Of a DNA stretch of 16,697 nucleotides, positions 1 through 16,697 are shown piece by piece. Below the pieces are notes generated by a model. The model had not been told where the DNA came from, did no database searches, and saw only the letters and a program-made list of their open reading frames with translations. The stretch covers positions 1 through 16,697 of the forward strand of contig CBDDTI010000463.1 of the NCBI GenBank assembly GCA_965233585.1, given 5' to 3'. The position numbers and the translations under genes are program-made. This stretch comes from a bacterium (GTDB lineage Bacteria > SAR324 > NAC60-12). Position 1 is the first letter of the stretch, and each line of letters starts with the position of its first letter.

Positions 1-6
1 GATAGA

Positions 7-324
7 TCGGAAACCAATCTGAAACCAGGCGGAAACCAGTCGAGTCGGAAACCAGTCTGAAACCAGTCGGAAACCAGTTTGAAACCAATCGGAAACCAAT
101 CTGAAACCTGTCGGAAACCAGTCGGAAACCATTCTGAACCAGTCCAAACCACAGTCTGAAAAGTCTGAAACCAGTCGGAAACCACTCGCAAACCAGTCGG
201 AAACCAGTCGGAAACCAGTCGGAAACCACTCGCAAACCACTCGCAAACCAGTCGGAAACCAGCCGGAAACCAATCTGAAACCAGTCGGAAACCAGTCGGA
301 AACCAATCTGAAACCTGCAGAAAC
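7..324 (+). repeat. 11-bp minisatellite GAAACCAGTCG (variants GAAACCAGTCT/TTT, GAAACCAATCT), about 28 copies
   Basis: Direct tandem repeats visible in the sequence. Confidence 0.95.
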
Positions 325-540
325 ATACCATCAGCTACATGGCTGGGACCCTGGATATTACACTGTAGACCCTAAAAACGGGGTCTGAAGAAGAGTTACA
401 TAGCTATATCACGTAAAAACAATTTCAATGGTGTAGACCCTTGGACCTTACAGATGCTGAAGGTCTGAAGACGTTTACCCATGCGTCAAAAATACAAAAA
501 AAAACTGTTCCAAACAACATGTTTTCTCTCGCTCATTTTT

Positions 541-1217
541 GAAATCTTATGGAATAACAATTTGGAAAAAAATATTATCAAATCTTATGAATAACAATTT
601 GGAAAAATCTTATGAAATCTTATGAATAACAATTTGGAAAAAAACTTATGAAATCTTATGAATAATAATTTGGAAAAAAAATCTTATGAAATCTTATGAA
701 TAATAATTTGGAAAAAAATCTTATGAAATCTTATGAATAACAATTTGGAAAAAAAAACTTATGAAATCTTATGAATAACAATTTGGAAAAAAAATCTTAT
801 GAAATCTTATGAACAACAATTTGGAAAAAAAAATCTTATGAAATCTTATGAATAACAATTTGGAAAAAATCTTATGAAATCTTATGAATAATAATTTGGA
901 AAAAAATCTTATGAAATCTTATGAACAACAATTTGGAAAAAAAAATCTTATGAAATCTTATGAATAACAATTTGGAAAAAATCGTATGAAATCTTATGAA
1001 AAACAATTTGGAAAAAAAAATCTTATGAAATCTTATGAAAAACAATTTGGAAAAAAATCGTATGAAATCTTATGAATAACAATTTGGAAAAAATCTGATG
1101 AAATCTTATGAAAAACAATTTGGAAAAATCGTATGAAATCTTATGAGTACAATTTGGAACAAAATCATCTTATCAAATCTTATGAATAACAATTTGGAAA
1201 AAATCTTATGAATAACA
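541..1217 (+). repeat. ~37-bp AT-rich minisatellite GAAATCTTATGAATAACAATTTGG(A)nTCTTAT, about 18 copies
   Basis: 18 AATTTGG cores at 34-40 bp spacing; unit length varies mainly in the A run. Confidence 0.95.
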
Positions 1218-1220
1218 CTT

Positions 1221-1514
1221 TGTCCAGACCTTTGTACGACCTGGGGAATCTAGCGTGGCAAAGGTCTAGAAACACAATGGCCAGCAAAACCAATCTGTGT
1301 TGATCAAGGCCAGAAACGCTGTCCAGACCTTTGGACAAACTGTGGAATCTAGCTTGGCAAAGGTCTAGGGCTACAATGGTCAGCAAAACCAACCTGTCTT
1401 GATCAGTGCCAGCTGTAAGAACTGGGGAATCTAGCTTGGCAAAGGTCTAGGGCTACAATGGTCAGCAAAACCAACCCGCCCTGATGATTGCCAGAAAAGC
1501 TGTCCAGACCTTTG
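1221..1514 (+). repeat. 99-bp tandem repeat, about 3 copies (third has a deletion, fourth is a stub)
   Basis: TGTCCAGACCTTTG at 1221, 1320 and 1501. GGAATCTAGC.TGGCAAAGGTCTAG and CAGCAAAACCAA each occur three times. Confidence 0.9.
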
Positions 1515-1711
1515 AAAAAGCAAGATCTGCCTTACATCTTCAAAGTTGAAAATTATGGGACATCCATATATCATGTCCAACATAGACACGCTCAAGGGTC
1601 TATAGTACCTTAAATGCAGAGGGTCTACAGCGCTCTAGGAAGTACTCTAGACCCTGGGCCCCTGAGACCTGGGGGTCTGGGTACCCTGGACCTTATGTAG
1701 TTGTGAGGGGA

Positions 1712-2333
1712 TGCAGAAACCAGATTGAAACAGTCTGAAACCAGTCGGAAACCAGCCGGAAACCAATCGGAAACCAGTTGGAAAACAGTCGGAAACAAGT
1801 CGGAAACCAGTCGGAAACCAGTTTGAAACAATTTGAAACCACTCGAAAACCACTCGGAAACCAGTCTGAAACCAGTCGGAAACCAATCGGAAACCAGTTT
1901 GAAACCAGTTTGAAACCATTCTGAACCAGTTTGAAACCAATTTGAAACCAGTCTGAAACCAGTCGGAAACCAATCGGAAACTAGTTTGAAACCAGTTTGA
2001 AACCATTCTGAACCAGTTTGAAACCAATTTGAAACCAGTCTGAACCAGTCTGAAACCAGTCGGAAACCACTCGCAAACCAGTCGGAAAGCATTCTTAAAC
2101 CGCTCTGAAACGATCTGAAACCAGTCTGAAACCAGCCGGAAACCACGCGGAAACCAGTCCGAAACCGGTCCGAAACCAGTCGGAAACCATTCTGAACCAG
2201 TTTGAAACCAGTCGGAAACCAATCAGAAACCAGTCGGAAACCAGTCGGAAACCAGTTGGAAACCAGTTCGAAACCAGTCGGAAACCAGTCGGAAACCAAT
2301 CGAAAACCAGTCGGAAACCAGTCGGAAACCAGT
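1712..2333 (+). repeat. 11-bp minisatellite GAAACCAGTCG, about 56 copies
   Basis: Same unit as 7-324. Confidence 0.95.
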
Positions 2334-2463
2334 ACTACTCTCCCAGTACTACTGTGTACTACAAAGCTCGCGCAAACAAACTCGCACAAAGTCGCTCCAT
2401 TACTACCGTATACTACAAAACTGCTACAAACACGTTGCAGTACTACCGTATACTACAAAACTT
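2329..2463 (+). repeat. Short block (~3 units) of the 40/41-bp CCAGTACTAC satellite
   Basis: CCAGTACTAC..GT.TACTACAAA units lying between two 11-bp arrays. Confidence 0.9.
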
Positions 2464-2690
2464 CTGAAACCAGCCTGAAACCACTCGGAAACCAGTCGGA
2501 AACCACTCTGAAACCAATTTGAAACCAGTCCGAAACCACTCTGAACCAGTCTGAAACCAGTCCGAAACCAGTCTGAACCAGTCAGAAACCAGATTGAACC
2601 AGTCTGAAACCAGTCGGAAACCAGTCGGAAACCAGTCAGAAACCAGTTGGAAACCAGTCGGAAACCAGTCGGAAACCACTCGGAAACCAG
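2464..2690 (+). repeat. 11-bp minisatellite GAAACCAGTCG, about 20 copies
   Basis: Same unit as above. Confidence 0.95.
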
Positions 2691-3430
2691 CACTACTCCG
2701 CACAAACTACTTCCCACTACTCTTGTGTACTACAAAGCTCGCACAAACTACTACCCAGTACTACTTTGTACACAAACACGTTCCCAGTACTACCGTATAC
2801 TACAAAACCCGCACAAAGTCGCTTCAGTACTACCATATATACTACAAAGCTCGCACAAAGTCGCTCCCAGGACTACCGTATACTGCAAAACTCGCACAAA
2901 CACGTTCCAGTACTACCGTATACTACAAAATCCGCACAAACACGTTGCAGTACTACCGATATACTACAAAACTTGCACAAACACGTTCCAGTACTACGGT
3001 ATACTACAAAACTCGCACAAAGTCGCTCCAGTACTACCGTATACTACAAAACTGCTACAAACACGTTGCAGTACTACCGTATACTACAAAACTTGCACAA
3101 ACGTTCCAGTACTACCGTATACTACAAAACTTGTACAAACACGTTCCAGTACTACCGTATACTACAAAACTTGCACAAACACGTTCCAGTACGACCGTAT
3201 ACTACAAAACTCGCACAAACACGTTCCCAGCACACCGTATACTACAAAACCCGCACAAAGCCGCTTCAGTTCTACCGTATACTACAAAACACGCACAAAC
3301 ACGTTCCAGTACTACCGTATACTACAAAGCTCGCACAAAGTCGCTCCCAGTACTACCGTATGCTACTGAACTCGCACAAACACATTCCAGTACTACCGTA
3401 TACTACAAAACTTGCACAAACACGTTGCAG
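2691..3430 (+). repeat. 40/41-bp satellite CCAGTACTACCGTATACTACAAAACTYGCACAAACACGTT, about 18 copies
   Basis: Direct tandem repeats with two monomer types (..AAACACGTT.. and ..AAAGTCGCTC..). Confidence 0.95.
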
Positions 3431-4025
3431 ACATCTCAGAGATCTCCGACTAGATTGAGCGCGAGCTGAACGTTCACTCCTGAGTGGGTTGGTAATTAAC
3501 TCTTGTCACTGGTTTTTTGATTACAAAATCCGTTAACAGTTGACCGTATCAGAGCGTGACTACCTTGTCCATGGGTCAAAAAAAGCCCTGCGTTAGCAGG
3601 GCGTGTGTGTGAACCATCTGAAAAAATGTAAAACTTCGATTTCCGTTTTTACTTGCTCATTTTAAGCAGGGGGTATGCGGCCATCACGCAAACGCATGCC
3701 AACGAAGCTATGCATGATGGTGGAAGCCGGGGCTGATCACCCTGGTGTACCTGCTTTATCATTTCAATTTTCAGCAATGGGACGTGGCTAACCCGAGAAC
3801 CACCTTGCCGAATTTTCTTTCAAACTGTGTCAAACCAAACCCAAACTCTCAGTTTTCCATTCGATGTCACTTCACTGCCTGCACGGTTTTCGCAATCTGT
3901 TAGGAGAGAACCATTTCGAATTTTCTCGGATCTTGTCATCATACCTTTCCTGTCAGGTTTAATTGAAGTGCTTTTGCACGAAAGATGCATTCCACATCAG
4001 AATTCGCAATGTCTGTTCTGAGCAA

Positions 4026-4147
4026 GTGTGTGTGTGTGTGTCAGTCCTGTGTGTGTGTGCGTGTGTGTCTGCGTGTATATATGTGTAAACATGTTTCTCT
4101 GCCTGTGTCTGTGTTTGAGCGCCTATCAGCATATCTGTGTGTGTTTG
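4026..4147 (+). repeat. Degenerate (GT)n microsatellite
   Basis: GTGTGTGT runs with interruptions. Confidence 0.85.
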
Positions 4148-4389
4148 TATTTTTTCACATCTTCTCTACAGCATACCTTGTCTGTCTCTTGCAACTAAAA
4201 CCCTGACATCTTCACATCTTCTCATCTTGACATCTTCACAATTTCTCACGAACATATTCATGTAAGTCTTTGGCGTCTGCAAATCATACAACTTCATAAC
4301 ACATCTGAGTACGTGTACACCTACTCGCTCTCGGGCCAACTGTCGTCTAGTTTTCTCCCATTATGAGGAAAATCCGACAAACTCGGCGC

Positions 4390-4477
4390 CTCGTTGTATT
4401 TGATCATCACCTTGTCCAAACGATTTTCCAAAACCCTGATCTGCCGCATTTCTGGAGACGTTTCGTTGGAGTGCATC
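4390..4477 (-). CDS. CCDC151: Exon G (88 nt): MHSNETSPEMRQIRVLENRLDKVMIKYNE
   Basis: Acceptor ttcAG|G, donor GAG|GCgccg, phase 2/0. Carries the IRxLENRLDKxxIKYNE motif. Lies inside track ORF 4321..4563(-). Confidence 0.85.
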
Positions 4478-5260
4478 CTGAAGGACGGAGGACGGATGTG
4501 TAACACTTTAAGGAAATTTAACGTCAAAAATTGGTAAACACCATCAAAAAAAGGATTTAACATGATTTAACTATGGAAAGGGATTCAACATGGAAGTACA
4601 TGGATTCAACTATGGTGTCATCTGACAATCTGCGAGGAATGAGCTGGAAGATCACCCTCTTTTTAGGTCATCAATCGGTCATATTCGCTAAGTGAAATTA
4701 CGGGATGGTCCTAGAAAAATCAGCAGCGCAGATCGAATCCACAGAAATAGAGGTTCTTCGTTTTTGAGCCGTTTTCTGTTCAGAATTTGAGGTGTTTTTT
4801 TGCGTCATTGATCATCAATGATCATCAATGATCGTCATGGCAGATGAAGTTGAGATGGACATATTTGACTGGTTGTTTCTGCACTAGTTTCAACCCCACT
4901 ACCAAAAATTGGATCCAACAAAGTAGAATTAATTCATCCGCAGATCATCACAGATCTGTTGGGTGCTGAAGTTGCCTGCGAACACGAAGATCACAGTGTG
5001 TTGCCATGTTCAAACCATTGCAGCCTAAGAAATGAACCAAAGGACCAAACTCTAAAGACATGAAAATTTGAAGTTTGAGGACTTTGGAATTAAGTAAAAT
5101 CGAAACCAGTGATAGTCGTGATAGTCACTCTGCCATCATCGTAGGTGAAAATCCTTGGTGTCAAAATGTTACCCTCATCGCTTTTGATCCTCCGGTTTGA
5201 CCCCAAAACCCCGTCATTCTCCAGTCAACGCCTCTTTAAATTCTCAAATCGGAAAGGGGC

Positions 5261-5305
5261 TAAAACATGTTTTTTAACATGTTTTTAAACATGTTTTTTA
5301 ACATG
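5261..5305 (+). repeat. 12-bp tandem repeat AACATGTTTTTW, about 3.5 copies
   Basis: Seen directly; each unit has the palindrome AACATGTT. Confidence 0.8.
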
Positions 5306-5398
5306 TGAATATGTACCACGGCAATGGTATACAATGGTATATACAGGTGGCCTGACCCTCCGAAGCAAACTCCAAAACTCCAAATTCCGACAGGCGGC

Positions 5399-5455
5399 TT
5401 GGAACCCATCGACAACTCGTCTTTTTTGATGTCCAACTGATCCAGAAAGCCACGC
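5399..5455 (-). CDS. CCDC151: Exon F (57 nt): RGFLDQLDIKKDELSMGS(K)
   Basis: Acceptor caAG|G, donor TCCAA|GCcgcc, phase 2/2. Lies inside track ORF 5260..5523(-). Confidence 0.72.
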
Positions 5456-5672
5456 CTTGAACGAAATTCCATACAGAATCCGAGCCAGGAACTGTCGGAA
5501 CTGTATCTCCAATTCAAAATCATGAAAAACTGGTGGGAATCGATTCAAATCGATACCTCATTTTTTGCACTATTCAACACATTTCAATAATTTCAATGTT
5601 TAAATCTGTTGAACCCAGGGCATGACAGGGCCGGGCCCCAAGGGTCGGGGTCCCCAGGGTCGCCAGGGTCGC

Positions 5673-5708
5673 CTCTTGTTGTTCTCGTTTTTGATCATGT
5701 CAAATCTC
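5673..5708 (-). CDS. CCDC151: Exon E (36 nt): RFDMIKNENNK(R)
   Basis: Acceptor ggAG|G, donor AAGAG|GCgacc, phase 2/2. Confidence 0.72.
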
Positions 5709-6118
5709 CTCCCAAAGGCTCATGCCACAGTTGCAGTTGCAAACATTTTAGATATTAAATATAAAAATATGGCATATAAAATGTTTAACAGCATATATGA
5801 CCTTTATGCTTAAATATTTCAAAATATCATGATATCCTATAGCTTGTGTATTGTGTAATAACCTTGTACAGTATCATGCTTTCCTAATTTTATATCGTAA
5901 AAGTATTTTCCCATCCATTTTCATATGTTTCCGAATGTTTCCTCCCATCTTTTGCCAATCATTAAACAAGATGGAAGCCACGAACCCGAATGTATTCACG
6001 TTCTTGGGCTACGAGTCCAAACCTCTGCAATAGGAAAACGAACTTTTTTTTCACGCATCGTGCGTTCATATCGTCTCAGCGAAGGCACTTGAGCAACAGT
6101 TCACAAAGAGACAACTAA

Positions 6119-6510
6119 CCAGCACAGCAACATCACCACCAGCAAAAAAAATCACCACCAGCACAACAACATCGCCAGCGCAATGAAATCACAACGAAAT
6201 CACCAGCGCAACAAAATCCCCAGAACGAACGAAATCACCAGCGCAACGAAATCACCAGCACAACGAACGCACCAGCGAACAGCACCAGCGCAACAAAATC
6301 ACCAGCACAACGAAATCACCAGCACAACGAAATCACCAGCACAACAACATCACCAGCGCAACGAAAGCACCAGCACAACGAAATCACCAGCGAACAGCAC
6401 CAGGGCAACAAAATCACCAGAACAAACGAAATCACTAGCACAACGAAATCACCAGCACAACAACATCAACAGCACAACAACATCACCAGAACAACGAGAT
6501 CACCACCACC
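6119..6510 (+). repeat. 17-bp minisatellite AACGAAATCACCAGCRC, block 1
   Basis: Direct tandem repeats. Confidence 0.93.
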
Positions 6511-6515
6511 TGCAA

Positions 6516-6808
6516 CACTCCACACTTTACCCACTGCACACTCCACACTCCACACTCTACACTTTACACTCCACTCCCCACACTCCACACTTTACACTCC
6601 ACACGCCACACTTTACACTCCACACTCCTTACTTTACACTCCGCACTCCACACTCCACACTCGACACTTTCCACTTCACACTCCACACTCTACACTTTAC
6701 ACTCCACACTCCACACTTTACACTCTACACTTTACACTCTACACTCCACACTCCACACTCTACACTTTACACACTCTACACTCCCCACTCCACACTGCTT
6801 ACTTTACA
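6516..6808 (+). repeat. 7-bp repeat CACACTC/TACACTT, block 1
   Basis: Direct tandem repeats, followed by ~1.5 units of the 41-mer (6806-6868). Confidence 0.93.
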
Positions 6809-6868
6809 CAAAATTTGCACAAACTACTTCCCAGTACTACTGTGTACTTCAAAGCTTTCACAAAGTCG

Positions 6869-6981
6869 ACCAGCGCAACAGAATCACCCGCACAAACAAA
6901 ATCACTAGCACAACGAAATCACCAGCACAACGAAATCACCAGAACAACAACATCACCAGCACAACAACATCACCACCACAA
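6869..6981 (+). repeat. 17-bp minisatellite, block 2
   Basis: Same unit as 6119-6510. Confidence 0.9.
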
Positions 6982-6985
6982 CTTA

Positions 6986-7581
6986 ACACTCCACGCTTTC
7001 CACATTACACTCCAAACTCCACACTCTACACCCTACACTGTACACTCCACACTTTACCCACTGCACACTCCACACTCCACACTTTACATTCCACACTCCT
7101 CACTCCTCACTGAACACTCCACACACTACACTCCACACTCCACACTCCACACTCCACAACACTCCACACTCCACACCCAACCACACTCTACACTCTACAC
7201 ACACCACACTCCTCACTCCACACTTTACACTCCACACTTTCCACTCCACACGCCACACTCCACACTCTACACTTTACACTCCACACTCCACACTCCACAC
7301 TTTACACTTTACACTCTACACTCCACACTCGATACTTTCCACTTCACACTCCACACTCGATACTTTCCACTCCACACTCCACACTCTACACTTTGCACTC
7401 CACACTCCACACTCCACACTTTATACTTCACACTCCTCACTCCACACTCAACACTCAGCACTTTGCACTCCACACTTTACACTCTACACTTTACACTCCA
7501 CACTCTACACTTTACACTCTACTCTTTACACACTCCACACTCCCCACTCCACACTTTACACTCCACGCTCCTTACTTTACA
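6986..7581 (+). repeat. 7-bp repeat CACACTC/TACACTT, block 2
   Basis: Direct tandem repeats. Confidence 0.93.
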
Positions 7582-8257
7582 CAAAGTTTGCACAAAGCAC
7601 TTCCCAGTACTACTTTGTACTACAAAGCTTGCACAAAGCACTTCCAAGTACTACTGTGTACTACAAAGCTTGCACAAAGCACTCCCCAGTACTACTGTGT
7701 ACTAGAAAGCTTACAGTACTACTGTGTACTACAAAGCTTGTAGAAACTACTTCCCAGTACTACTGTGTACTACAAAGTTTGCACAAACACAATCCAGTAC
7801 TACTGTATACTACAAAGCTTGCACAAACACGTTCCAGTAACACTGTGTACTACAAAGCTTGCACAAAGTCGTTCCCAGTACTACTGTGTACTACAAAGCT
7901 TGCACAAACACGTTCCAGTACTACTGTGTACTACAAAGCTTGCACAAAATCGTTCCCAGTACTACTGTGTACTACAAAGCTTGCACAAAGTCGTTCCCAG
8001 TACTACTGTGTACTACAAAGCTTGCACAAAGTCGTTCCCAGTACTACTGTGTACTACAAAGCTTGCACAAAGTCGTTCCCAGTACTACTGTATACTACAA
8101 AGCTCGCACAAACACGTTCCAGTACTACTGTGTACTACAAAGCTTTCACAAAGTCGTTCCCAGTACTACTGTGTACTACAAAGCTTGCACAAACACGTTC
8201 CAGTACTACTGTGTACTACAAAGCTTGCACAAACACTTTCCCAGTACTACTGTGTAG
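7580..8257 (+). repeat. 40/41-bp satellite CCAGTACTACTGTGTACTACAAAGCTTGCACAAAGTCGTTC, about 16 copies
   Basis: Direct tandem repeats; the last unit is cut after CCAGTACTACTGTGTAG. Confidence 0.95.
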
Positions 8258-10726
8258 CTTGCTTATATTTAGCTGTATTTTTGTATTTTTAAGTTTTTGG
8301 GGGGCCTGAGATATTTTTTGTATTCTTTGTTTGGCCGAGCTATTTGAGAATCTCGTTTGCTTCAACAATAACTGATTTGGGATACCCTTTGCAACCCTAA
8401 CTTGTGACATCTAAGGCATGTACGGAACATGTTGTTTGTTTTCCTGGTCCTTTCCTTTGCAAAATTCATACATATTCGTACATTTTTTTCACTTTCCATT
8501 GGCTCTTTCAATTTTTCTCGTCGAGGCAGCTGAAGAGGTATTTGAAACTATTGCTGGCTTATTTTTATTTCTCGTTTGCAATTTGGGTCAGTAGCTGTCA
8601 AACACGACAGCAGCATTGCTGCTTTTGCAATGGCAGATTGCTTCGATCCAAGTGGCTTGTCTTGGGCTGGAAATGGGGCTCACAGTTCCGTATTTCATGT
8701 CATCACCCAGAGCTGGGAACTTGGCTGCGCACGCCGTGGGGTGTTGACTGCACGGTTTTAGCCAAAGCGGATTGACAAGCGTCTGAGCAAACAATGCCCA
8801 TTCACATTCAAAAAAACATTCCAAAAGCATCAAAGGACAAAGGCGGGCTCTGGAGCAGTCAGACATTGGCTTCAGGAGGGCGGTGGCTGTTCGGCTGCTT
8901 AGGCTCAGCATGTCCACGCAGGGAGGAGGGCTGTTTCGGCCTCGGCTCCTGCTTGCGAAGCGTTTTCAAATGTTGACCTCAAGTGACGCTACTTCGGCCT
9001 TAGCGGTAGCTGTTTCAGCCAAGCCCTTGCAGCATCAGGCAAGCTGCTTCCGGCTGTCAAAGCTGCTTTGGCGTGTTTTGACGCTGTTCCGACTTCTCAG
9101 TTTGAAGCTGCGTTACATACTTCTGCGTTACATACTTAGTCAGTTTTTGTACATAGCAGGTCGTGATGGACTTTTCGCAAAAATAGGAATTGGCTGAGGT
9201 GGGCTGAAGCGTCAGGGTAAAGACTTTGGGTTTCTGGTCGCTACATGGAATCTACCAATGGGTTGAATCTAAGAGACGATTACCCACAAATATTGGGAGA
9301 TTCAATGAAAGCTTTGATTTGGAGAGAGGCTTGGCTACTTAATATGTGTTTTTTGTCCTCTCCTTAGGAGCATCAAAAAAATCAACGGACCTCGAATCAA
9401 CGGGTGGGAATGTCCTCTCCTTAGGAGCTTCGGGGTTGTCCTTGAACCTCCTAAGGGGAGGACGACAAGGGGACGAAACTGAAATACTTTTAAATATGAG
9501 TTTTTCAAAGGCCTTTGTCCCATGGTTGTCCTCTCCTTAGGAGCCTCGGGGACGTCCTTGAACCTGCTAAGGACAGGACGAATTGTCCTCTCCTTAGGAG
9601 CATGCCTGAGATCCGCTTCGCTTCAGGAGCCTCGGCTCAAGCACTTCACGGAAGCTTGTGGCTGAAAACTGGCCACGCCATCTCTACGCCAAAGAGGCGG
9701 CAGCTGTCTCGGCTACTGTAGCTGCAGCTGCTTCGGCAACTTAGCTGCTTCGGCTTCTGGTGGCTGCTTTGGCCACAAGTATGCCACCGCGGCATCGACC
9801 AAAGTCAGATCAGCTGGAAAGGGCCGGATCTTAGCCACATAGACTGCGGCGGGGTGCTGTCTTCAAAGCCGGATGTAAGATGCAAAAAAAATACAAGTGG
9901 AAAAGTGGATAAACATGCGTTGCGGCAGCTGCAGACACCCTGTAGACTCAGTTCAGCAAACAGCAATTGATTTATAACAGGTGCAACGAAGATTAAAAAA
10001 AGCTCACACATTTCAATTTCAATGTGTTTCCTTCTGCAGCTGTTTCAGCCCAAGCGCTAACTCAGAATCAGCCAGCTGTGCACTCTGTAGTGCTAAGGAC
10101 CCTTTAAATCAAGCAAGCTGAAAGAGATCTGCGCTTAGTCCAAATACGGATAGTTGGAACTTTGGGGCTCGAAAAGCTGTTTCAGAAGCACCGCAAGTTG
10201 AAATGCAGCAAGTGGGGATCCCGTGGGCCGCCCATGTTGCATATTAAGAAAGAGGGGCCAAAGATGACTTTGCCAAAGCTGAAGTCGGCTTGGTATTCCA
10301 ATTGTGGCTGTTTCAGCCAAGGTCTGTGTCGGTTGTTGGATGGTGGCTGGTTCGGCCATCAACAGGTCTGTTTCAGTTTCTAACCCAATTGCTTCAATCA
10401 AAACGCAAAAAGATATTTGCAAAACTCGTCTGCTAGCGGGGGAAAAAGCGTGGCCACGGCTCTTAAGATATTTTTCTCAAAGTTGGTGTTGAGCATTGTG
10501 TCGCGTATCTTTGCCGCGACTAAGTTGCAGTCTTAAGTTTGTGTTGGTCTTTTACATTCTACTTCAAGGTTGTTTATTGTGAAGCCCCTCTTGTTATGTT
10601 GCGGCAAAGTTTAAGGAAGAAAGACGTGAAAGATATTTGTTATTCTCGTTTGCACCTCTTCCTTTTTGTTGGATTTCTCGTTGACGGCCCAAAAAAAACA
10701 CAAAAATACAGCTAAATATACGCAAG
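8258..10726. mobile_element. Non-autonomous TIR DNA transposon-like insertion, 2469 bp
   Basis: TIRs 8258-8284 and 10700-10726 (CTTGCKTATATTTAGCTGTATTTTTGT, 26/27 identical). GTAG flanks both ends directly (8254-8257, 10727-10730). Removing the element and one GTAG restores an in-register satellite monomer. No transposase ORF recognised. Confidence 0.88.
9354..9601. repeat. Cluster of the 18-bp motif TGTCCTCTCCTTAGGAGC: four direct and two inverted degenerate copies
   Basis: Direct copies at 9354, 9411, 9527 and 9584; inverted copies at 9448-9463 and 9564-9579. Confidence 0.88.
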
Positions 10727-10930
10727 GTAGTACAAAGCTTGCACACACACGTTCCAGTACTACTGTGTACTACAAAGCTTACACAAACACGTTCCCAGTA
10801 CTACTGTGTACTACAAAGCTTGCACAAAGTCGTTCCCAGTACTACTTTGTACTACAAAGCTTGCACAAAATCGTTCCCAGTACTACTGTGTACTACAAAG
10901 CTTGCACCAAAGCACTTCCCAGTACTACTG
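10727..10930 (+). repeat. Continuation of the 40/41-bp satellite, about 5 copies
   Basis: Same TGTGTAC/AAAGCTT variant as 7580-8257. Confidence 0.95.
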
Positions 10931-11169
10931 AGGTTTTGCAGCTTCCCCCATAGACACGGCGACGTGAGCGCAGCAAAACGAACGAGGTTTTGCAGCTATA
11001 GACACGGCTACGGCACAGGACAAGCAGAGACAGAGGTTTTGCAGCTTCCCCCATAGACACGGCGACGCCAGAGGAGAAGCAGAGACTGAGGTTTGGAATT
11101 CCCCCATAGACATGGCGACGTGTGCGCAGCAAAACGAACGAGGTTTTGCAGCTTTCCCCATAGACACGG
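10930..11169 (+). repeat. ~50-55-bp repeat with core GAGGTTTTGCAGCTTCCCCCATAGACACGGCGACG, 5 copies with two linker types
   Basis: Cores at 10930, 10984, 11033, 11088 and 11140. Linkers GCGCAGCAAAACGAAC (x2) and AAGCAGAGAC (x2). Confidence 0.9.
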
Positions 11170-11325
11170 AATTAACGACGCGAAAAACGTCGCGAAAAAC
11201 GTTGCGACGACTAACTGGCGGCGAACAAGGGTCCAGCCCCCAGACCCCCAGATTATAAACGGGAACCCTTCGCTACGCATTCGGGAAATGTGACAGGTTG
11301 GTCGGGCGAAAACCGCACGAATGTC

Positions 11326-11350
11326 CTCTGCATTTGTTGAACCTCATTAC
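11326..11350 (-). CDS. CCDC151: Exon D (25 nt): NEVQQMQ(R)
   Basis: Acceptor gcAG|G, donor CAGAG|GAcatt (GA donor), phase 1/2. It bridges exons C and E in frame. Confidence 0.68.
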
Positions 11351-11598
11351 CTGCGATGAACTCGGGGACATGAAATGTTCGAAATGTTCGCTCAGATTCC
11401 TCGTTTTTGGTGGACCAACCGAGGTTTCAAAAATATCCAAAAACGAAAATCAAGGATATGATAGATATGCATAATTACATTCGTCAATTGGAAAATGTGA
11501 AAAATATGGAAAAAATGAACATGTCAAAAAATAAAAGGAAAAAATCGGAAAAAAAAATATCACATCTTCCAGCGTTTGTCACCCTTTGTCCAGGTTGC

Positions 11599-11669
11599 TG
11601 GTCGAATCCAAGACTTTCTCCAAGGATTGTGGTTTCTCATCTCGCAACTGTGCGATCTGATTTCTGAGC
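11599..11669 (-). CDS. CCDC151: Exon C (71 nt): LRNQIAQLRDEKPQSLEKVLDST(S)
   Basis: Acceptor ctgAG|G, donor ACCA|GCaacc, phase 2/1. Heptad-like peptide. The donor was chosen by phase match to exon D. Confidence 0.72.
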
Positions 11670-11967
11670 CTCAGCCAGCTGCCAAATCATCCAAGGTATG
11701 TTTGGAGTAACCCCCAGAAAACCAAAGTACTTTGCCACAATCCTAGTACTATCTATTAATACAAATTATTAATACATCTATATACTAGGATTGAAAGATT
11801 TCAAGTCTTTTGCAAATTACTATATACAACCTTAATGTTGGATGTTTATCCGCCAAATCCATGGACTTCACAAGATATTATTGCCCTCCAACCAATTCCT
11901 TAAACTCAGAAAATCGCAGAAATTCACAGAAATTCATCGCAGAAATTCACATGCTTTTCCAAGCAAC

Positions 11968-12002
11968 ATCTTGTTTTCATCCTTCATCTGACCGATGATT
12001 TC
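11968..12002 (-). CDS. CCDC151: Exon B (35 nt): EIIGQMKDENK(M)
   Basis: Acceptor ccAG|G, donor AT|GTtgct, phase 0/2. An alternative GA donor 3 nt upstream keeps the same phase. Confidence 0.78.
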
Positions 12003-12128
12003 CTGGTGATCTTCACAAGCGGAAAATCATCAGAAATTTCACAACTGAAATCCCATTAAAAACTCGTTGTTTTAAAGGGGTTCCCAGCTCCAGTGCCTGA
12101 CTCACGAGTTGCAATAATCTCTATCTAA

Positions 12129-12166
12129 CTAGGTAGATCTAGGTAGATCATGGTAGATCTAGGTAG
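12129..12166 (+). repeat. 10-bp tandem repeat CTAGGTAGAT, about 4 copies (intronic)
   Basis: Seen directly. Confidence 0.8.
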
Positions 12167-12333
12167 TATAACCAGAAAAATAATCTAGCAACAACAGTAC
12201 TTCGGTTTGGGCATTGCACAGGTGCTTCTGACGGGATCGGATTCTCAGGATGACTCAATAGAGACCATGCAAATTAAACAGCAAGAAAAATAGCACCTGT
12301 CCCTGGGGCCAATTCCCAAATTCGAAGCACTGC

Positions 12334-12384
12334 CTTGTTCTGCTGAATATTCAATTTGGCGGTCTCATAGGTCGCCTTCCTTTC
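12334..12384 (-). CDS. CCDC151: Exon A (51 nt): ERKATYETAKLNIQQNK
   Basis: Acceptor ctgAG|G, donor AAG|GCagtg, phase 0/0. The peptide resembles the docking-complex N-terminal motif. Confidence 0.8.
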
Positions 12385-13076
12385 CTCAGCCGAATTCGAC
12401 TGATGGAGTGGTAAAGTCCGATCTATGTCCGATCTGACACCGATCTGTTTAAAAAAAAATGGTCAAAAAGAAATTCCCACTCAGCGGCGTCGCACCTGGG
12501 CCATGTTTAGAATCAAAACATTTTTAGATATGTTCAGTTATGTTCAGTTGGTAATTTTTGCACGGATGACACTAGATCACTGCAATTAGAAGGTAATCCA
12601 CTACAAACTACCAATAACATGTGTTTGTTCGTGAAGTGGGAAGAAATTACAGTAAAAATCCGTCAAAATGAAAGGCAAATGAAAGCAAAAACCATCCTTT
12701 TTCCAACCCCTTTCCGACAACAAAAACACCAAGGGCACCAACAACAGCTTCACCAAATTGTCTAGCCTCTTTTCAACAGCATCTGCATCTGGCCTACTTC
12801 CGAAATCCTGTGGCATGTGTTTTCGGAAGGGACTGTTGCGAGCGGTGAATTTCAAGTTCTTGGGGTGGACATTCAAAGAAGAAACTCACACTCACAACAG
12901 TTTGTTCTAAATGTAGGCTATCCTATAGCACGTCTCTTCACAAACGCATGTGTCTGGCACATCAACGCTCTGGTCTGTCTCACTTCCACCAAGATTAATC
13001 CTGATTATACCACCGGACTGAAAGTTAGAATGCCATTTTGGTGGAATTTCATGGACGGCAAGGAAAAAAAAACGCG

Positions 13077-14489
13077 TACCGCGTGAGAAATCCGGGACGG
13101 GCATTCTAAGCCTATTTATTTCGTCCTGAAACCCCTAAAACTCCAGAATTCTGAACGAAATTTCGACCGTCCCGTGTCTTCCATGCACTGCAAATTTGCA
13201 GAATATGCAAAAAAAATTGCCCATGATCAATAAAAAATGTCATAATATGCAGGAAAAAAATCCAATATCGTATTGAAAATATGCAGACTATGCAGGTGTT
13301 TGACAAAAAAACATGCTCATGATCAGCAAAGAAGTACATGATCAATAAAAAATTGCAAAAATATACAGAAAAAATGCTATATCGTCATCCGCCGATCCAA
13401 GAACACCTCGTTTACTCACATCTAATTTGTCTGCACATGTACATACATGTAATATTTACAGGGCATATATGTGTGTATAATGCCGTTTTCGGAGGTTACC
13501 ATCCTGTTTAATCAACATGTTCATTATCGTGGGGAATACTGTGGGAAAATCCTCAACGGGCATTCTAAGCCTATTTATTTAGTCCTGAAACCCCTAAACC
13601 TCCAAAATGTTTCACGAATTTTCGACCGTCCCGTGTCTTCCATGTACTGCAAATATGCAGAATATGCATGTAAAGTGCGAAAGAATCTACCCATGATCAA
13701 TAAAAAATGTCATAATATGCAGAAAAATGCAATATCGTATTGTAAATATGCAGAACATGCAGGTATTTTCAAAAAAAACATGCTCATGACTCATGATCAG
13801 CAAAAAAACATGATCAAAAAAATGACATAATATGCCGAAAATCCGCCGATCCACGAACACCTCGTTTACTCACATCTAATTTGTCTGCACATGTACATAT
13901 ATGTAATACAAATATATATATATATATCTATATATACAGCGCATATATGTGTGTGTAGTGCCCTTTTCGGAGGTTACCATCCTGTTTAATCAACATTTTC
14001 ATTATTGTCGGGAATACCGTGGGAAAATCCCCGATGGGCATTCTAAGCCTATTTATTTCGTCCTGAAACCCCTAAACCTCGAAAATTCTCCAAAATTCTT
14101 GACGAATTTTCGACCGTCCCACTGCAAATAAAAAAATGACATTAAAGGACCGGATAACCCCACATGTTACCAACTTCTTTAGACTTAGACTGAGCATAGA
14201 AAAGCAAGAAGGGAAGAGGAAGTATAAGAGTGATGGAGCGGTGATGGTGGGTGAGTTTGTCGTGTGTGTGTGTATGTATGTTCATGTACAGTGAGTGAGT
14301 GAGAGTGTGAGTGAGTGATGTGAGTGTGGTGTGTGTGTGAGGGATGTGAGAGTGAGTGAAGTGAAGTGAAGTCCATATCGTATTGTAAATATGCAGAACA
14401 TGCAGGTATTTGCAAGAAAACATGCTCATGATCAGCCAAAAAATCATGATCAATAAAAAATGTCAGAGTTTGCAGAAAAATGCAATATC
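13077..14489 (+). repeat. ~460-480-bp tandem repeat: two full copies plus an interrupted third
   Basis: GGGCATTCTAAGCCTATTTATTT.GTCCTGAAACCCCTAAA at 13099, 13558 and 14036 (periods 459 and 478). The third copy breaks at ~14142 and resumes at 14375-14489. Confidence 0.92.
14250..14372 (+). repeat. GTGA/GT/GTGAA simple-sequence tract
   Basis: Seen directly; part of the insertion at 14143-14374. Confidence 0.85.
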
Positions 14490-15710
14490 TCAACCGTCAT
14501 TGGGGACCAAGATTTTATTTATAGATTGAAAATCTATATCGAATTCAGAAGTTTTGGGGGCATATTCTGCGGAGGCATTCTAACCCTACAAGAAACAAGG
14601 TTTAGTGGCCCTGGGGGGTCTTGATACCTTAGATCAACCAAAACACACAAAAAGAAGGTGCTGCCAGAAAACCAGGTTTTTGGAGAGAAAACCGGGTTGA
14701 TGTCGGTTTTGGACTACGGTTTTTACGGGTTTTTATTGGTATGGTTTGTTTTTATAGGTGTTCAACGGTTTTTCTATGGGTTGTGGCGAAGCTGCTTCAT
14801 CAAAAACCTGGTTTTGTTGACTACAAGGCTGAAAACCAGGTTTTAAAGCGTAACCAATATTCACAGGCAAATTTGATCAAACAATTTTTGAAGATGTTTA
14901 TCCACATTTACCAGCATAATACGGTACCGACTGAAAGGTAGAATTGTTGGTAGAATTTTTCAGACAATTTTTGTGGGGCATTCTAACTTTCAATGGAAAA
15001 AAATTGGTGGAATCCCGGTCATTCTAACTGTCAGTCCGGCGGTATAATCATGATTAATCCAAACCAAACAAAATTGAAAACATATTTTTAACAAAAAATA
15101 TAGCAACAACTACTCTGACCCCTGGACTAGTTGCCAAATCTTGTTTTTTTTGTTTTTTTGATCGTTTTTTTGGTCTTTGTTTTTTGGGGGTGGTTTTCTC
15201 GAGGTTTTGGTGCAATCCTGATTAATCTGGAATAATCCTGATTAATCCAGTTCATAACGTCCTACATCATAACTCCGGCTAATTCCGGCCTTCTTGTCCC
15301 CAAACAGGGAAAAATCAGATGCTCAGAGACTTGGGCATGGGCTGAGGGCAAGTGTGTATTTCATCTATTTTCATCTAGTTTTCTGAAGAATTTAGCATTT
15401 TTCAAAAACAATGCCGATAAAACTGGAACGAAATAAAGCAGACAAAGTGCACTTAGGACATAGGTTGGGCATTTTTTACATACAATCCTCCAATGCCTGT
15501 GATCCCAAGTCGTATTTTTCAAAGAACGTGATATTCCTTCAAGAAAACGTGGCCTGACTTTGTGCCTTCCCTTTGAAAGATTGCAATGTCTATTTGAAAA
15601 GAGTGCAGTGATGGTCTGAAAAAAATAAAAATAAGTTAATACGTATACAATTTCATAGAAATATGGCGCCTTCTGCTAACAGATTCCAGCACCATTCAAA
15701 ATTAAGATCC

Positions 15711-15757
15711 ATTTATATATTTATATTTATTTATTTATTGATGTATTTATATATATA
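15711..15757 (+). repeat. AT-rich simple repeat (TATT/TA)n
   Basis: Seen directly. Confidence 0.7.
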
Positions 15758-16697
15758 CCATTGTGTTTTTTGCGATCATGCCATTCTTTGAACTGAATGT
15801 TGATAATTATCTGGAATATGTTCCTTCAAAAAAGTGCATCATCTCTTTGAAAAGGGTGCAAGATTCCCTCCAACCGTAAAACATCATTCCAAATTTCAAC
15901 ATAGAGTTCTTTTGTGTAGATTGTGGTCCTTCTATCAAAAGAATATGGTATTCCTTGACGAATGTGTGGAAAATTGTGTTTGTTTTTTAACTATGAACTC
16001 CTTGAGGGAGATCCAATATTCTCTCAAAACAATGGAACGTAATGCCAGAATGTGTTTTTTTACACATGCAGCACTCTTTCTGAAATAATATGGATTTCCC
16101 TTGGTGCATAAGGCATTATTTTGGGAAGTATAATGAAATAACTCCTTTAGAGAAAGACCTGGTTCTTAAGGAACAACAAACAAGGCATGTTGAACCCTGT
16201 CAACAGGAATACAACATGTGTGAAGAAAATTATCTATTTTTGCAGGAACATGGTTTCTTGAAAAGGATACTACATTGCCCTATGGTGCGGTACTTGCCAG
16301 GTTAGTCATCTTACAGGATTTTCAAGGGATATTGCATTGATGCATTGGATATTGCACTTTTTGACGTGAATTCTGCATATTAAAAGGTTGTTTTTAATTG
16401 AAAAACACGCTACATATGGCACAAGAATATTGTTTTCTTGAAGGGATACCATATCATTTCCAAGAAAATTACGTTTCTTTCAAAAAAAATGTTGCATCTT
16501 TGAAAGGATTCTTTCATAATGTGTAGGGGTATTGTTTGTTGAAAAAACATTGCATTGTTTCAAAAAAAAATGCAACTTATATAATGAAACATGTTTCTTT
16601 ACAAGCTGGGGATACTTCATTGTTGCATTTAATATTGCATTTTATAACAAGAATGCACAATGCTAAAATTCATGCTACACATGATAGAAAAATGGTT

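Follow-up and report, generated by a model that had tools for sequence, protein, structure and literature searches.

The window analysed here is a whole contig of 16,697 nt (CBDDTI010000463.1) from a 12-Mb assembly filed as prokaryotic. Its minus strand carries seven exons of 25-88 nt whose 363 nt join, with the consistent phases described in the original prediction, into 121 stop-free codons (Table 1). Together they encode residues 25-145 of a 532-aa protein, 23% of its length. In transcript order, the introns between them measure 331, 298, 248, 5617, 217 and 921 nt. Five donors are GC, one is GA and one is GT, with the GC after exon G placed by the end of the match, and all seven acceptors read AG|G. 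At each of the six internal introns, just one of the equivalent cut positions leaves an AG acceptor. Against the full-length homologue P0125, 85 exact matches of 7 residues were obtained, covering residues 25-146 only; 200 first-order Markov simulations produced at most one such match (mean 0.015). The boundaries of exon G also recur in nine database ORFs that read through into the intron. The frame of exon A is likewise open, over 62 codons from stop to stop. In a search for other genes, 18 of the window's 98 listed ORFs were selected and gave no Pfam match, and the window had no Rfam match at the gathering score.

Table 1. Features of the contig in transcript order; L003 is an independent contig used for comparison.
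Feature	Position	Length	Strand	Remarks
Intron before exon A	12385..16697	>4,313 nt	minus	cut by contig end
Exon A	12334..12384	51 nt	minus	codes for residues 25-41 of 532; acceptor AG|G, donor GC
Exon B	11968..12002	35 nt	minus	acceptor AG|G, donor GT
Exon C	11599..11669	71 nt	minus	acceptor AG|G, donor GC
Exon D	11326..11350	25 nt	minus	acceptor AG|G, donor GA
Intron D-E	5709..11325	5,617 nt	minus	mostly nested repeats and insertions; colinear with L003 up to 9701
Remaining 41-nt array, 55-nt array and repeat end	10728..11288		no strand	repeat end at 11288, common to four other contigs
Insert in intron D-E	8257..10727	~2.47 kb	no strand	imperfect inverted ends, TA on both flanks; splits the 41-nt array
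High-copy repeat block in intron D-E	5964..8256		no strand	sharp start near 5964; 17-, 7- and 41-nt arrays
Exon E	5673..5708	36 nt	minus	acceptor AG|G, donor GC; identical in L003
Exon F	5399..5455	57 nt	minus	acceptor AG|G, donor GC; identical in L003
Exon G	4390..4477	88 nt	minus	last residue 145; Pfam ODAD1_CC region begins here; acceptor AG|G, donor GC
Intron after exon G	1..4389	>4,389 nt	minus	cut by contig end; 11-, 38-, 99- and 40-nt repeat arrays

Coding sequence makes up 4.5% of the 7,995-nt span, in line with the earlier estimate of under 5%, and 15% once the D-E intron is removed. The scattered appearance of the exons arises because some introns have been enlarged by repeats and transposons. 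Judging from the repeat limits, nesting may have expanded the D-E intron from about 0.3 kb to 5.6 kb. At the sharp start of the high-copy block, read depth rises from ~20 to ~5000, and loose ends are piled there. The insert that splits the 41-nt array probably represents a DNA transposon that has decayed or is non-autonomous; seven of its ORFs were tested and gave no Pfam match. In the four contigs that share the repeat end, A-rich sequence follows it, and its motif had no match in a scan of the genome-contig collection.

The 121-residue peptide is identical, at 121/121 positions, to 16 of the 137 proteins with which it was compared. Two of these are MMETSP transcripts, and a third is CAL1162010.1 (UniRef100_A0A9P1GCS8), a Cladocopium goreaui protein to which its source already gives the name ODAD3/CCDC151. 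None of the contigs behind the remaining 13 is longer than 3,650 nt; as the genomic span exceeds this, we infer that those products must be spliced. All six junctions are supported at the protein level. P0125 is identical to the window peptide over the part that the window covers, and ODAD1_CC (PF21773) scores 72.1 bits on it against a cut-off of 27; exon G alone reaches 16.3 bits, under that cut-off. A representative-protein search returned 1,741 matches at E<=0.001. In the PDB profile search, the best match by far was 7moq_X (316 bits, profile 9-524, E 4.7e-93), whose chain name is Docking complex 1 protein and which comes from what we take to be the Tetrahymena doublet structure in which the CCDC151 homologue was modelled as DC1. 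It was followed by the ODAD3 chains 7rro_H4, 9cpc_1L and 8j07_m8 (105-119 bits, E 2e-33 to 5e-29) and, more weakly, by distal DC1 (78 bits), 7moq_Z (72), DC2 (57) and distal DC2 (24). On these scores the protein is nearer to DC1/ODAD3 than to DC2/ODAD1. An ODAD1/CCDC114/DC2 identity was rejected, with 57 and 24 bits against 316 and 105-119.

The original prediction had spoken of an intact CCDC151-like gene and had proposed a protein search of the joined peptide. Protein comparisons led to DC1/ODAD3 chains and to identity with a protein named ODAD3/CCDC151, which narrows the family assignment against CCDC114/ODAD1. The peptide was also described as an uninterrupted coiled coil; its frame is indeed unbroken, but the predicted helix is not. 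An AlphaFold2 single-chain model of P0125 (mean pLDDT 69.7, pTM 0.20) has helices at residues 8-63, 69-117 and 124-248, so that the window region spans three predicted helices, interrupted at residues 64-68 and 118-123. The model otherwise has the long helical, coiled-coil-type chain of ~530-620 aa expected of the family.

By orthology, the protein would form a long coiled coil with a DC2/ODAD1 partner along the flagellar doublets and, during the swimming stage, would dock the outer dynein arms at 24-nm intervals. A different job for the same gene, an ODA10-like part in dynein maturation with a proximal position in place of that of a 24-nm docking subunit, seems unlikely. In Chlamydomonas, both DC1 and ODA10 correspond to ODAD3 (PMC8754002), and ODA10 is described as an ODAD3 homologue that localizes proximally, is needed for cytoplasmic maturation steps and not for docking, and does not bind DC2 (PMC4603930). 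The nine PDB matches include no chain named as Chlamydomonas DC1, which leaves some room for this role. Against it stand the 316-bit match to a docking complex chain and the modelling of the CCDC151 homologue of Tetrahymena, a fellow alveolate, as DC1 on the doublet (10.1101/2020.11.30.404319). We therefore prefer a docking subunit of the DC1 type. Among the papers listed in a literature search, none dealt with a dinoflagellate docking complex, judged by title or by the start of the abstract.

Homologous products fall into two lengths: 520-aa products lack seven residues near positions 433-441 that are present in 527/532-aa products, and both kinds recur on many contigs. The deletion site lies outside the window. 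Allelic variation, a species-level difference or splicing noise may explain the deletion, and we regard it as very improbable that the two forms (520 versus 527/532 aa) are regulated isoforms of a single dinoflagellate ODAD3 gene. If they were, the isoforms could serve the transverse and the longitudinal flagella, or could share out docking (DC1) and assembly (ODA10), which are assigned to two genes in Chlamydomonas.

Both gene ends lie off the contig, and the flanking introns must therefore exceed 4.3 kb. The exon or exons for the N-terminal residues 1-24 are absent from 12385-16697. On the other side, the expectation that the next exon would not be found in 1-4389 held: the minus strand there has no 4-residue match to residues 146-339, and L003 lacks this exon as well over ~4.6 kb on that side, which bears out the further intron of more than 4.3 kb. 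The residues expected for that exon (AQSIRKTYE...) are those present in homologues. A tblastn search and an exact 8-residue scan of the 747 contigs did not find the remaining 77% of the protein elsewhere in the assembly. Five isolated 8-residue matches outside the home contig were taken as probable chance matches.

Four of the 24 listed sequencing runs, three RNA (from three studies) and one DNA-type marked as a possible source, were aligned to 1,901 of the 16,697 bases (4200-6100; exons E-G). No spliced joint was seen in the three RNA runs over this region, and none of the loose ends listed for the four runs fell at an exon border. Contigs from the RNA runs pass unspliced through the exon-intron borders, and one contig from the DNA run covers 4277-5989. 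The RNA runs are likely DNA carry-over, because their repeat-to-unique depth pattern resembles that of the DNA run. Since the words that retrieved these runs were mostly intronic and the runs behave like DNA, they neither support nor refute splicing, and intron retention was not adopted as an explanation for the unspliced contigs. Compared with L003, the window differs at none of 181 exon bases, with no exon gap, and at 33 of 2,411 intron bases, a weak contrast (P ~0.08).

The seven exons could also belong to a partial duplicate or decaying copy, with the working gene elsewhere. Neither gene end was found in the window or in the rest of the assembly, and the lack of spliced reads over exons E-G would agree with such a copy. 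However, both gaps coincide with contig ends, all splice sites are consensus-like, the L003 exons are unchanged while the introns differ, and relative to the transcript products there is no stop, frameshift or amino-acid change. In addition, the C. goreaui model is continuous across these residues and extends into the gene parts on either side. Such a copy is very improbable. An intact gene appears to be the better reading, resting on identity with full-length transcript products and with the C. goreaui model, which continues on both sides, although the window itself holds only the 23% given above.

The values reported for the assembly are 92.49% completeness and 2.09% contamination, which might speak for a prokaryotic host that acquired a eukaryotic gene by horizontal transfer. 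This is hardly credible for a contig that carries spliceosomal-type introns and satellites: ORFs cover 0.35 of it, whereas on the five largest contigs they cover 0.82-0.92. Residues derived from its introns also have matches in other assemblies, on contigs of up to 542 kb, and its exon-G motif had no match in the genome-contig collection scan, its own genome possibly excluded. Among the 24 listed runs, ten are coral metagenomes of DNA type that contain 0.98 of the words, and all ten are marked as possible sources. Binning contamination most likely explains a dinoflagellate contig in a prokaryote assembly. We consider it highly probable that the window is nuclear DNA of Cladocopium, a coral symbiont, carrying seven internal exons of ODAD3/CCDC151 (DC1-type). 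Only 15 of the 747 contigs are ORF-dense (3.2 of 12.0 Mb), and at least one contig is dinoflagellate; findings on the assembly's other small contigs should therefore not be credited to the prokaryote. The biological weight of the locus is small. It is a conserved flagellar gene already known and annotated in C. goreaui, a species whose splice-site habits have been published.

In that work, C. goreaui donors are GC (43.6%), GT (36.6%) and GA (19.8%), 96.1% of acceptors are AGG, and genes average 17.2 exons and 15.7 kb (15,745 nt), of which 2,018 nt (~13%) are coding (PMC9412976). The locus matches this Symbiodiniaceae gene build in its GC/GA/GT donors, AG|G acceptors and many short exons, and introns removed at such sites would yield the 532-aa product. 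When set against the published means, its exons are shorter (52 versus 120 nt on average) and three of its introns are longer, at more than 4.3 kb versus a mean of 839 nt (PMC9412976). Tiny exons, little coding DNA and repeats are the normal Symbiodiniaceae gene build (PMC9412976). At the protein level, CAL1162010.1 is identical over residues 25-145 but is 428 aa long and departs from the family sequence at about residue 391, while the transcript products have 520-532 aa; judging from the alignment, the 3' end of the public C. goreaui model is probably wrong. ODAD1/CCDC114/DC2 chains (6u42_7T, 9e78_5G and probably 7moq_Z) share PF21773 as paralogous coiled-coil subunits and match much more weakly. 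The match to 7moq_X extends over the whole length, a long helical build is common to the protein, 7moq_X and the ODAD3 chains, and docking, which is seen in structures for 7moq_X and mammalian ODAD3, is the predicted role of the Cladocopium protein.

Seven short minus-strand segments, listed below as exons A-G in transcript order, together encode a continuous stretch of one protein. Their joined sequence has 363 nt, or 121 codons with 0 stops, and 4.5% of the span is coding. Their colinear order was recovered with seven homologues as queries, and the window contains 85 exact 7-residue matches to P0125 (a full-length homologue of 532 aa), compared with at most one across 200 simulated windows. 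The original prediction that seven small exons form an uninterrupted 121-aa frame was borne out by the joined translation, the tblastn search and the simulation control. The six complete introns comprise four of 217-331 nt, one of 921 nt and one, between exons D and E, of 5,617 nt.

Coding segments of the ODAD3/CCDC151 gene in the window
Exon	Position	Strand	Basis
A	12384-12334	minus	tblastn + joined frame
B	12002-11968	minus	tblastn + joined frame
C	11669-11599	minus	tblastn + joined frame
D	11350-11326	minus	tblastn + joined frame
E	5708-5673	minus	tblastn + joined frame
F	5455-5399	minus	tblastn + joined frame
G	4477-4390	minus	tblastn + joined frame

The prediction of a CCDC151-like gene also held, and sequence identity and profile scores narrowed it to ODAD3/DC1. 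Exon G with flanking residues retrieved 170 proteins, and most of the 120 listed carry Pfam PF21773. The joined peptide is identical at 121/121 positions to 16 of 137 proteins that were long enough for comparison; two of the 16 are MMETSP transcripts and another is C. goreaui CAL1162010.1 (source name ODAD3/CCDC151). The remaining 13 sit on contigs no longer than 3,650 nt, which cannot contain the genomic span, and therefore we infer that they must derive from spliced RNA. By protein labels, Breviolum-cluster, Durusdinium and Symbiodinium proteins match fewer positions (109-111, 110 and 103 of 121, respectively), which points to Cladocopium as the putative source of the gene. In the structure database, a profile built from 13 dinoflagellate proteins scored 316 bits with DC1 chain 7moq_X, 105-119 with three ODAD3 chains, 78 with distal DC1, 72 with 7moq_Z, 57 with DC2 and 24 with distal DC2; a single-sequence search agreed with this ranking of DC1/ODAD3 above DC2. 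The predicted model of the full-length protein is nearly all helix, of which the window supplies the last part of helix 8-63, all of helix 69-117 and the first part of helix 124-248. CAL1162010.1, the public C. goreaui model (P0126), stops following the family at about residue 391 and has its last residue at 428; its 3' end was probably mis-predicted.

Donors of exons A to G are, in order, GC, GT, GC, GA, GC, GC and GC. Acceptors are AG followed by G in 7/7, and in each of the six internal introns a single equivalent cut position yields AG. For C. goreaui, donors are reported as GC (43.6%), GT (36.6%) and GA (19.8%), with AGG at 96.1% of acceptors (PMC9412976); a review gives 25-74% GC/GA-AG introns for Symbiodiniaceae (PMC11453091), and dinoflagellate gene-prediction pipelines have been modified to allow GA donors (PMC7245778). 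Nine of the 143 proteins with the exon-G motif diverge from the family sequence instead of continuing. The match limits coincide with both ends of exon G in 9/9 and the next residue is alanine in 9/9, although these nine are not independent (one is apparently the window's own ORF, with four more in its 90% cluster). The alanine would be a GC donor read in frame. Judged from their composition, exon G plus intron read-through, these 77-241 aa database "proteins" (P0001, P0002, P0010, P0013, P0016, P0121-P0124) are gene-calling artefacts on dinoflagellate DNA.

No splice joints were found in three RNA runs aligned to 4200-6100 (exons E-G), where assembled contigs pass unspliced through exon borders. 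Repeat stretches are over-represented in these runs to the same degree as in the DNA run (repeat versus unique, for instance 217,568 vs 10.8 in run X15 and 254,885 vs 19.9 in X13), which suggests that DNA is present in the three libraries. Splicing of these exons would thus be supported at the protein level, the three-run check of 4200-6100 being against it or neutral. A short repeat of 8-nt units at 4200-4263 is very abundant, with summed contig depth above 200,000 in two runs versus about 11-20 in unique flanks.

Of the 532 residues, the window encodes 25-145, and because it is the whole of contig C463, both gene ends are simply cut off by the contig ends. A 4-residue scan gave no match to residues 1-24 in 12385-16697 or to residues 146-339 in 1-4389; it could miss a micro-exon of fewer than 4 codons, but not the exon following it. 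The few later-residue matches are isolated or inside repeat arrays, and a search of the rest of the assembly did not find the remainder of the gene. Contig L003, the single metagenome match to an exon-G motif, aligns colinearly with window 325-9701, and its roughly 4.6 kb on that side do not contain the next exon either; scan and L003 both agree with the noted absence of that exon from 1-4389. Between L003 and the window 0/181 exon bases and 33/2,411 intron bases differ, a weak contrast in the expected direction (P about 0.08). At the left end, window 1-324 carries an 11-nt array and L003 1-274 non-repeat DNA, a difference that may come either from an insertion polymorphism or from assembly.

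The assembly (12.0 Mb, 747 contigs) has reported completeness of 92.49% and contamination of 2.09%, the latter despite only 15/747 contigs (3.2 of 12.0 Mb) being ORF-dense, meaning that 120-codon stop-free frames cover at least 80% of their length. Cover of C463 is 35%. The majority of the assembly looks eukaryotic. Sequence in common with the window occurs in 11 of the 746 other contigs (0.30 Mb), and among the runs listed, 16/16 labelled runs containing the stretch are coral metagenomes. The simplest reading is that C463 is symbiont DNA co-binned through similar base composition (GC 42% vs about 40%).

The Tetrahymena homologue of CCDC151 has been modelled as DC1, which with DC2 forms a 24-nm repeat on the doublet and catches the outer dynein tail (10.1101/2020.11.30.404319). 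By orthology, the Cladocopium protein would play this DC1 role in flagella of the swimming stage; symbiont cells inside the host are described as lacking flagella (10.1101/652131). An ODA10-like assembly role (PMC4603930) is the alternative, ODAD3 being reported as orthologous both to Chlamydomonas DC1 and to its paralogue ODA10 (PMC8754002). Recurrent forms of 520 aa (P0008, P0131) lack 7 residues relative to P0125 and P0129 at about 433-441, a site beyond the window, possibly through alternative splicing; that this deletion marks two flagellum- or role-specific isoforms seems very improbable.

The exons appear scattered because repeats fill the long intron D-E, from about 5964 to 11288, as a composite repeat. 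A high-copy block begins sharply at 5964, where 13 contigs of the DNA run have loose ends, and is followed by 17-, 7- and 41-nt arrays. An insert of about 2.47 kb at 8257-10727 interrupts the 41-nt array; its inverted ends (about 40 nt) are imperfect and bordered on either side by TA. No further copy of the insert occurs in the assembly, and a Pfam search of 7 of its ORFs gave no match. Beyond it lie a 55-nt array and a right end at 11288 common to contigs C108, C13, C114 and C548, with A-rich sequence next. Elsewhere, a block of about 550 nt is duplicated at 79% identity (13088-13632, 13547-14120), with partial extra copies at about 14375-14496. Stretches 325-540 and 1221-1712 match contig C55 at 93-97% on either side of a 38-nt array (540-1212), as if the array lay inside a dispersed element.

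Both the gene and the way it is built have been described before. C. goreaui genes are reported to average 15,745 nt, with a CDS of 2,018 nt and 17.2 exons, mean exon and intron lengths being 120 and 839 nt (PMC9412976). Without intron D-E, 15% of the span is coding, close to the C. goreaui mean of about 13%.
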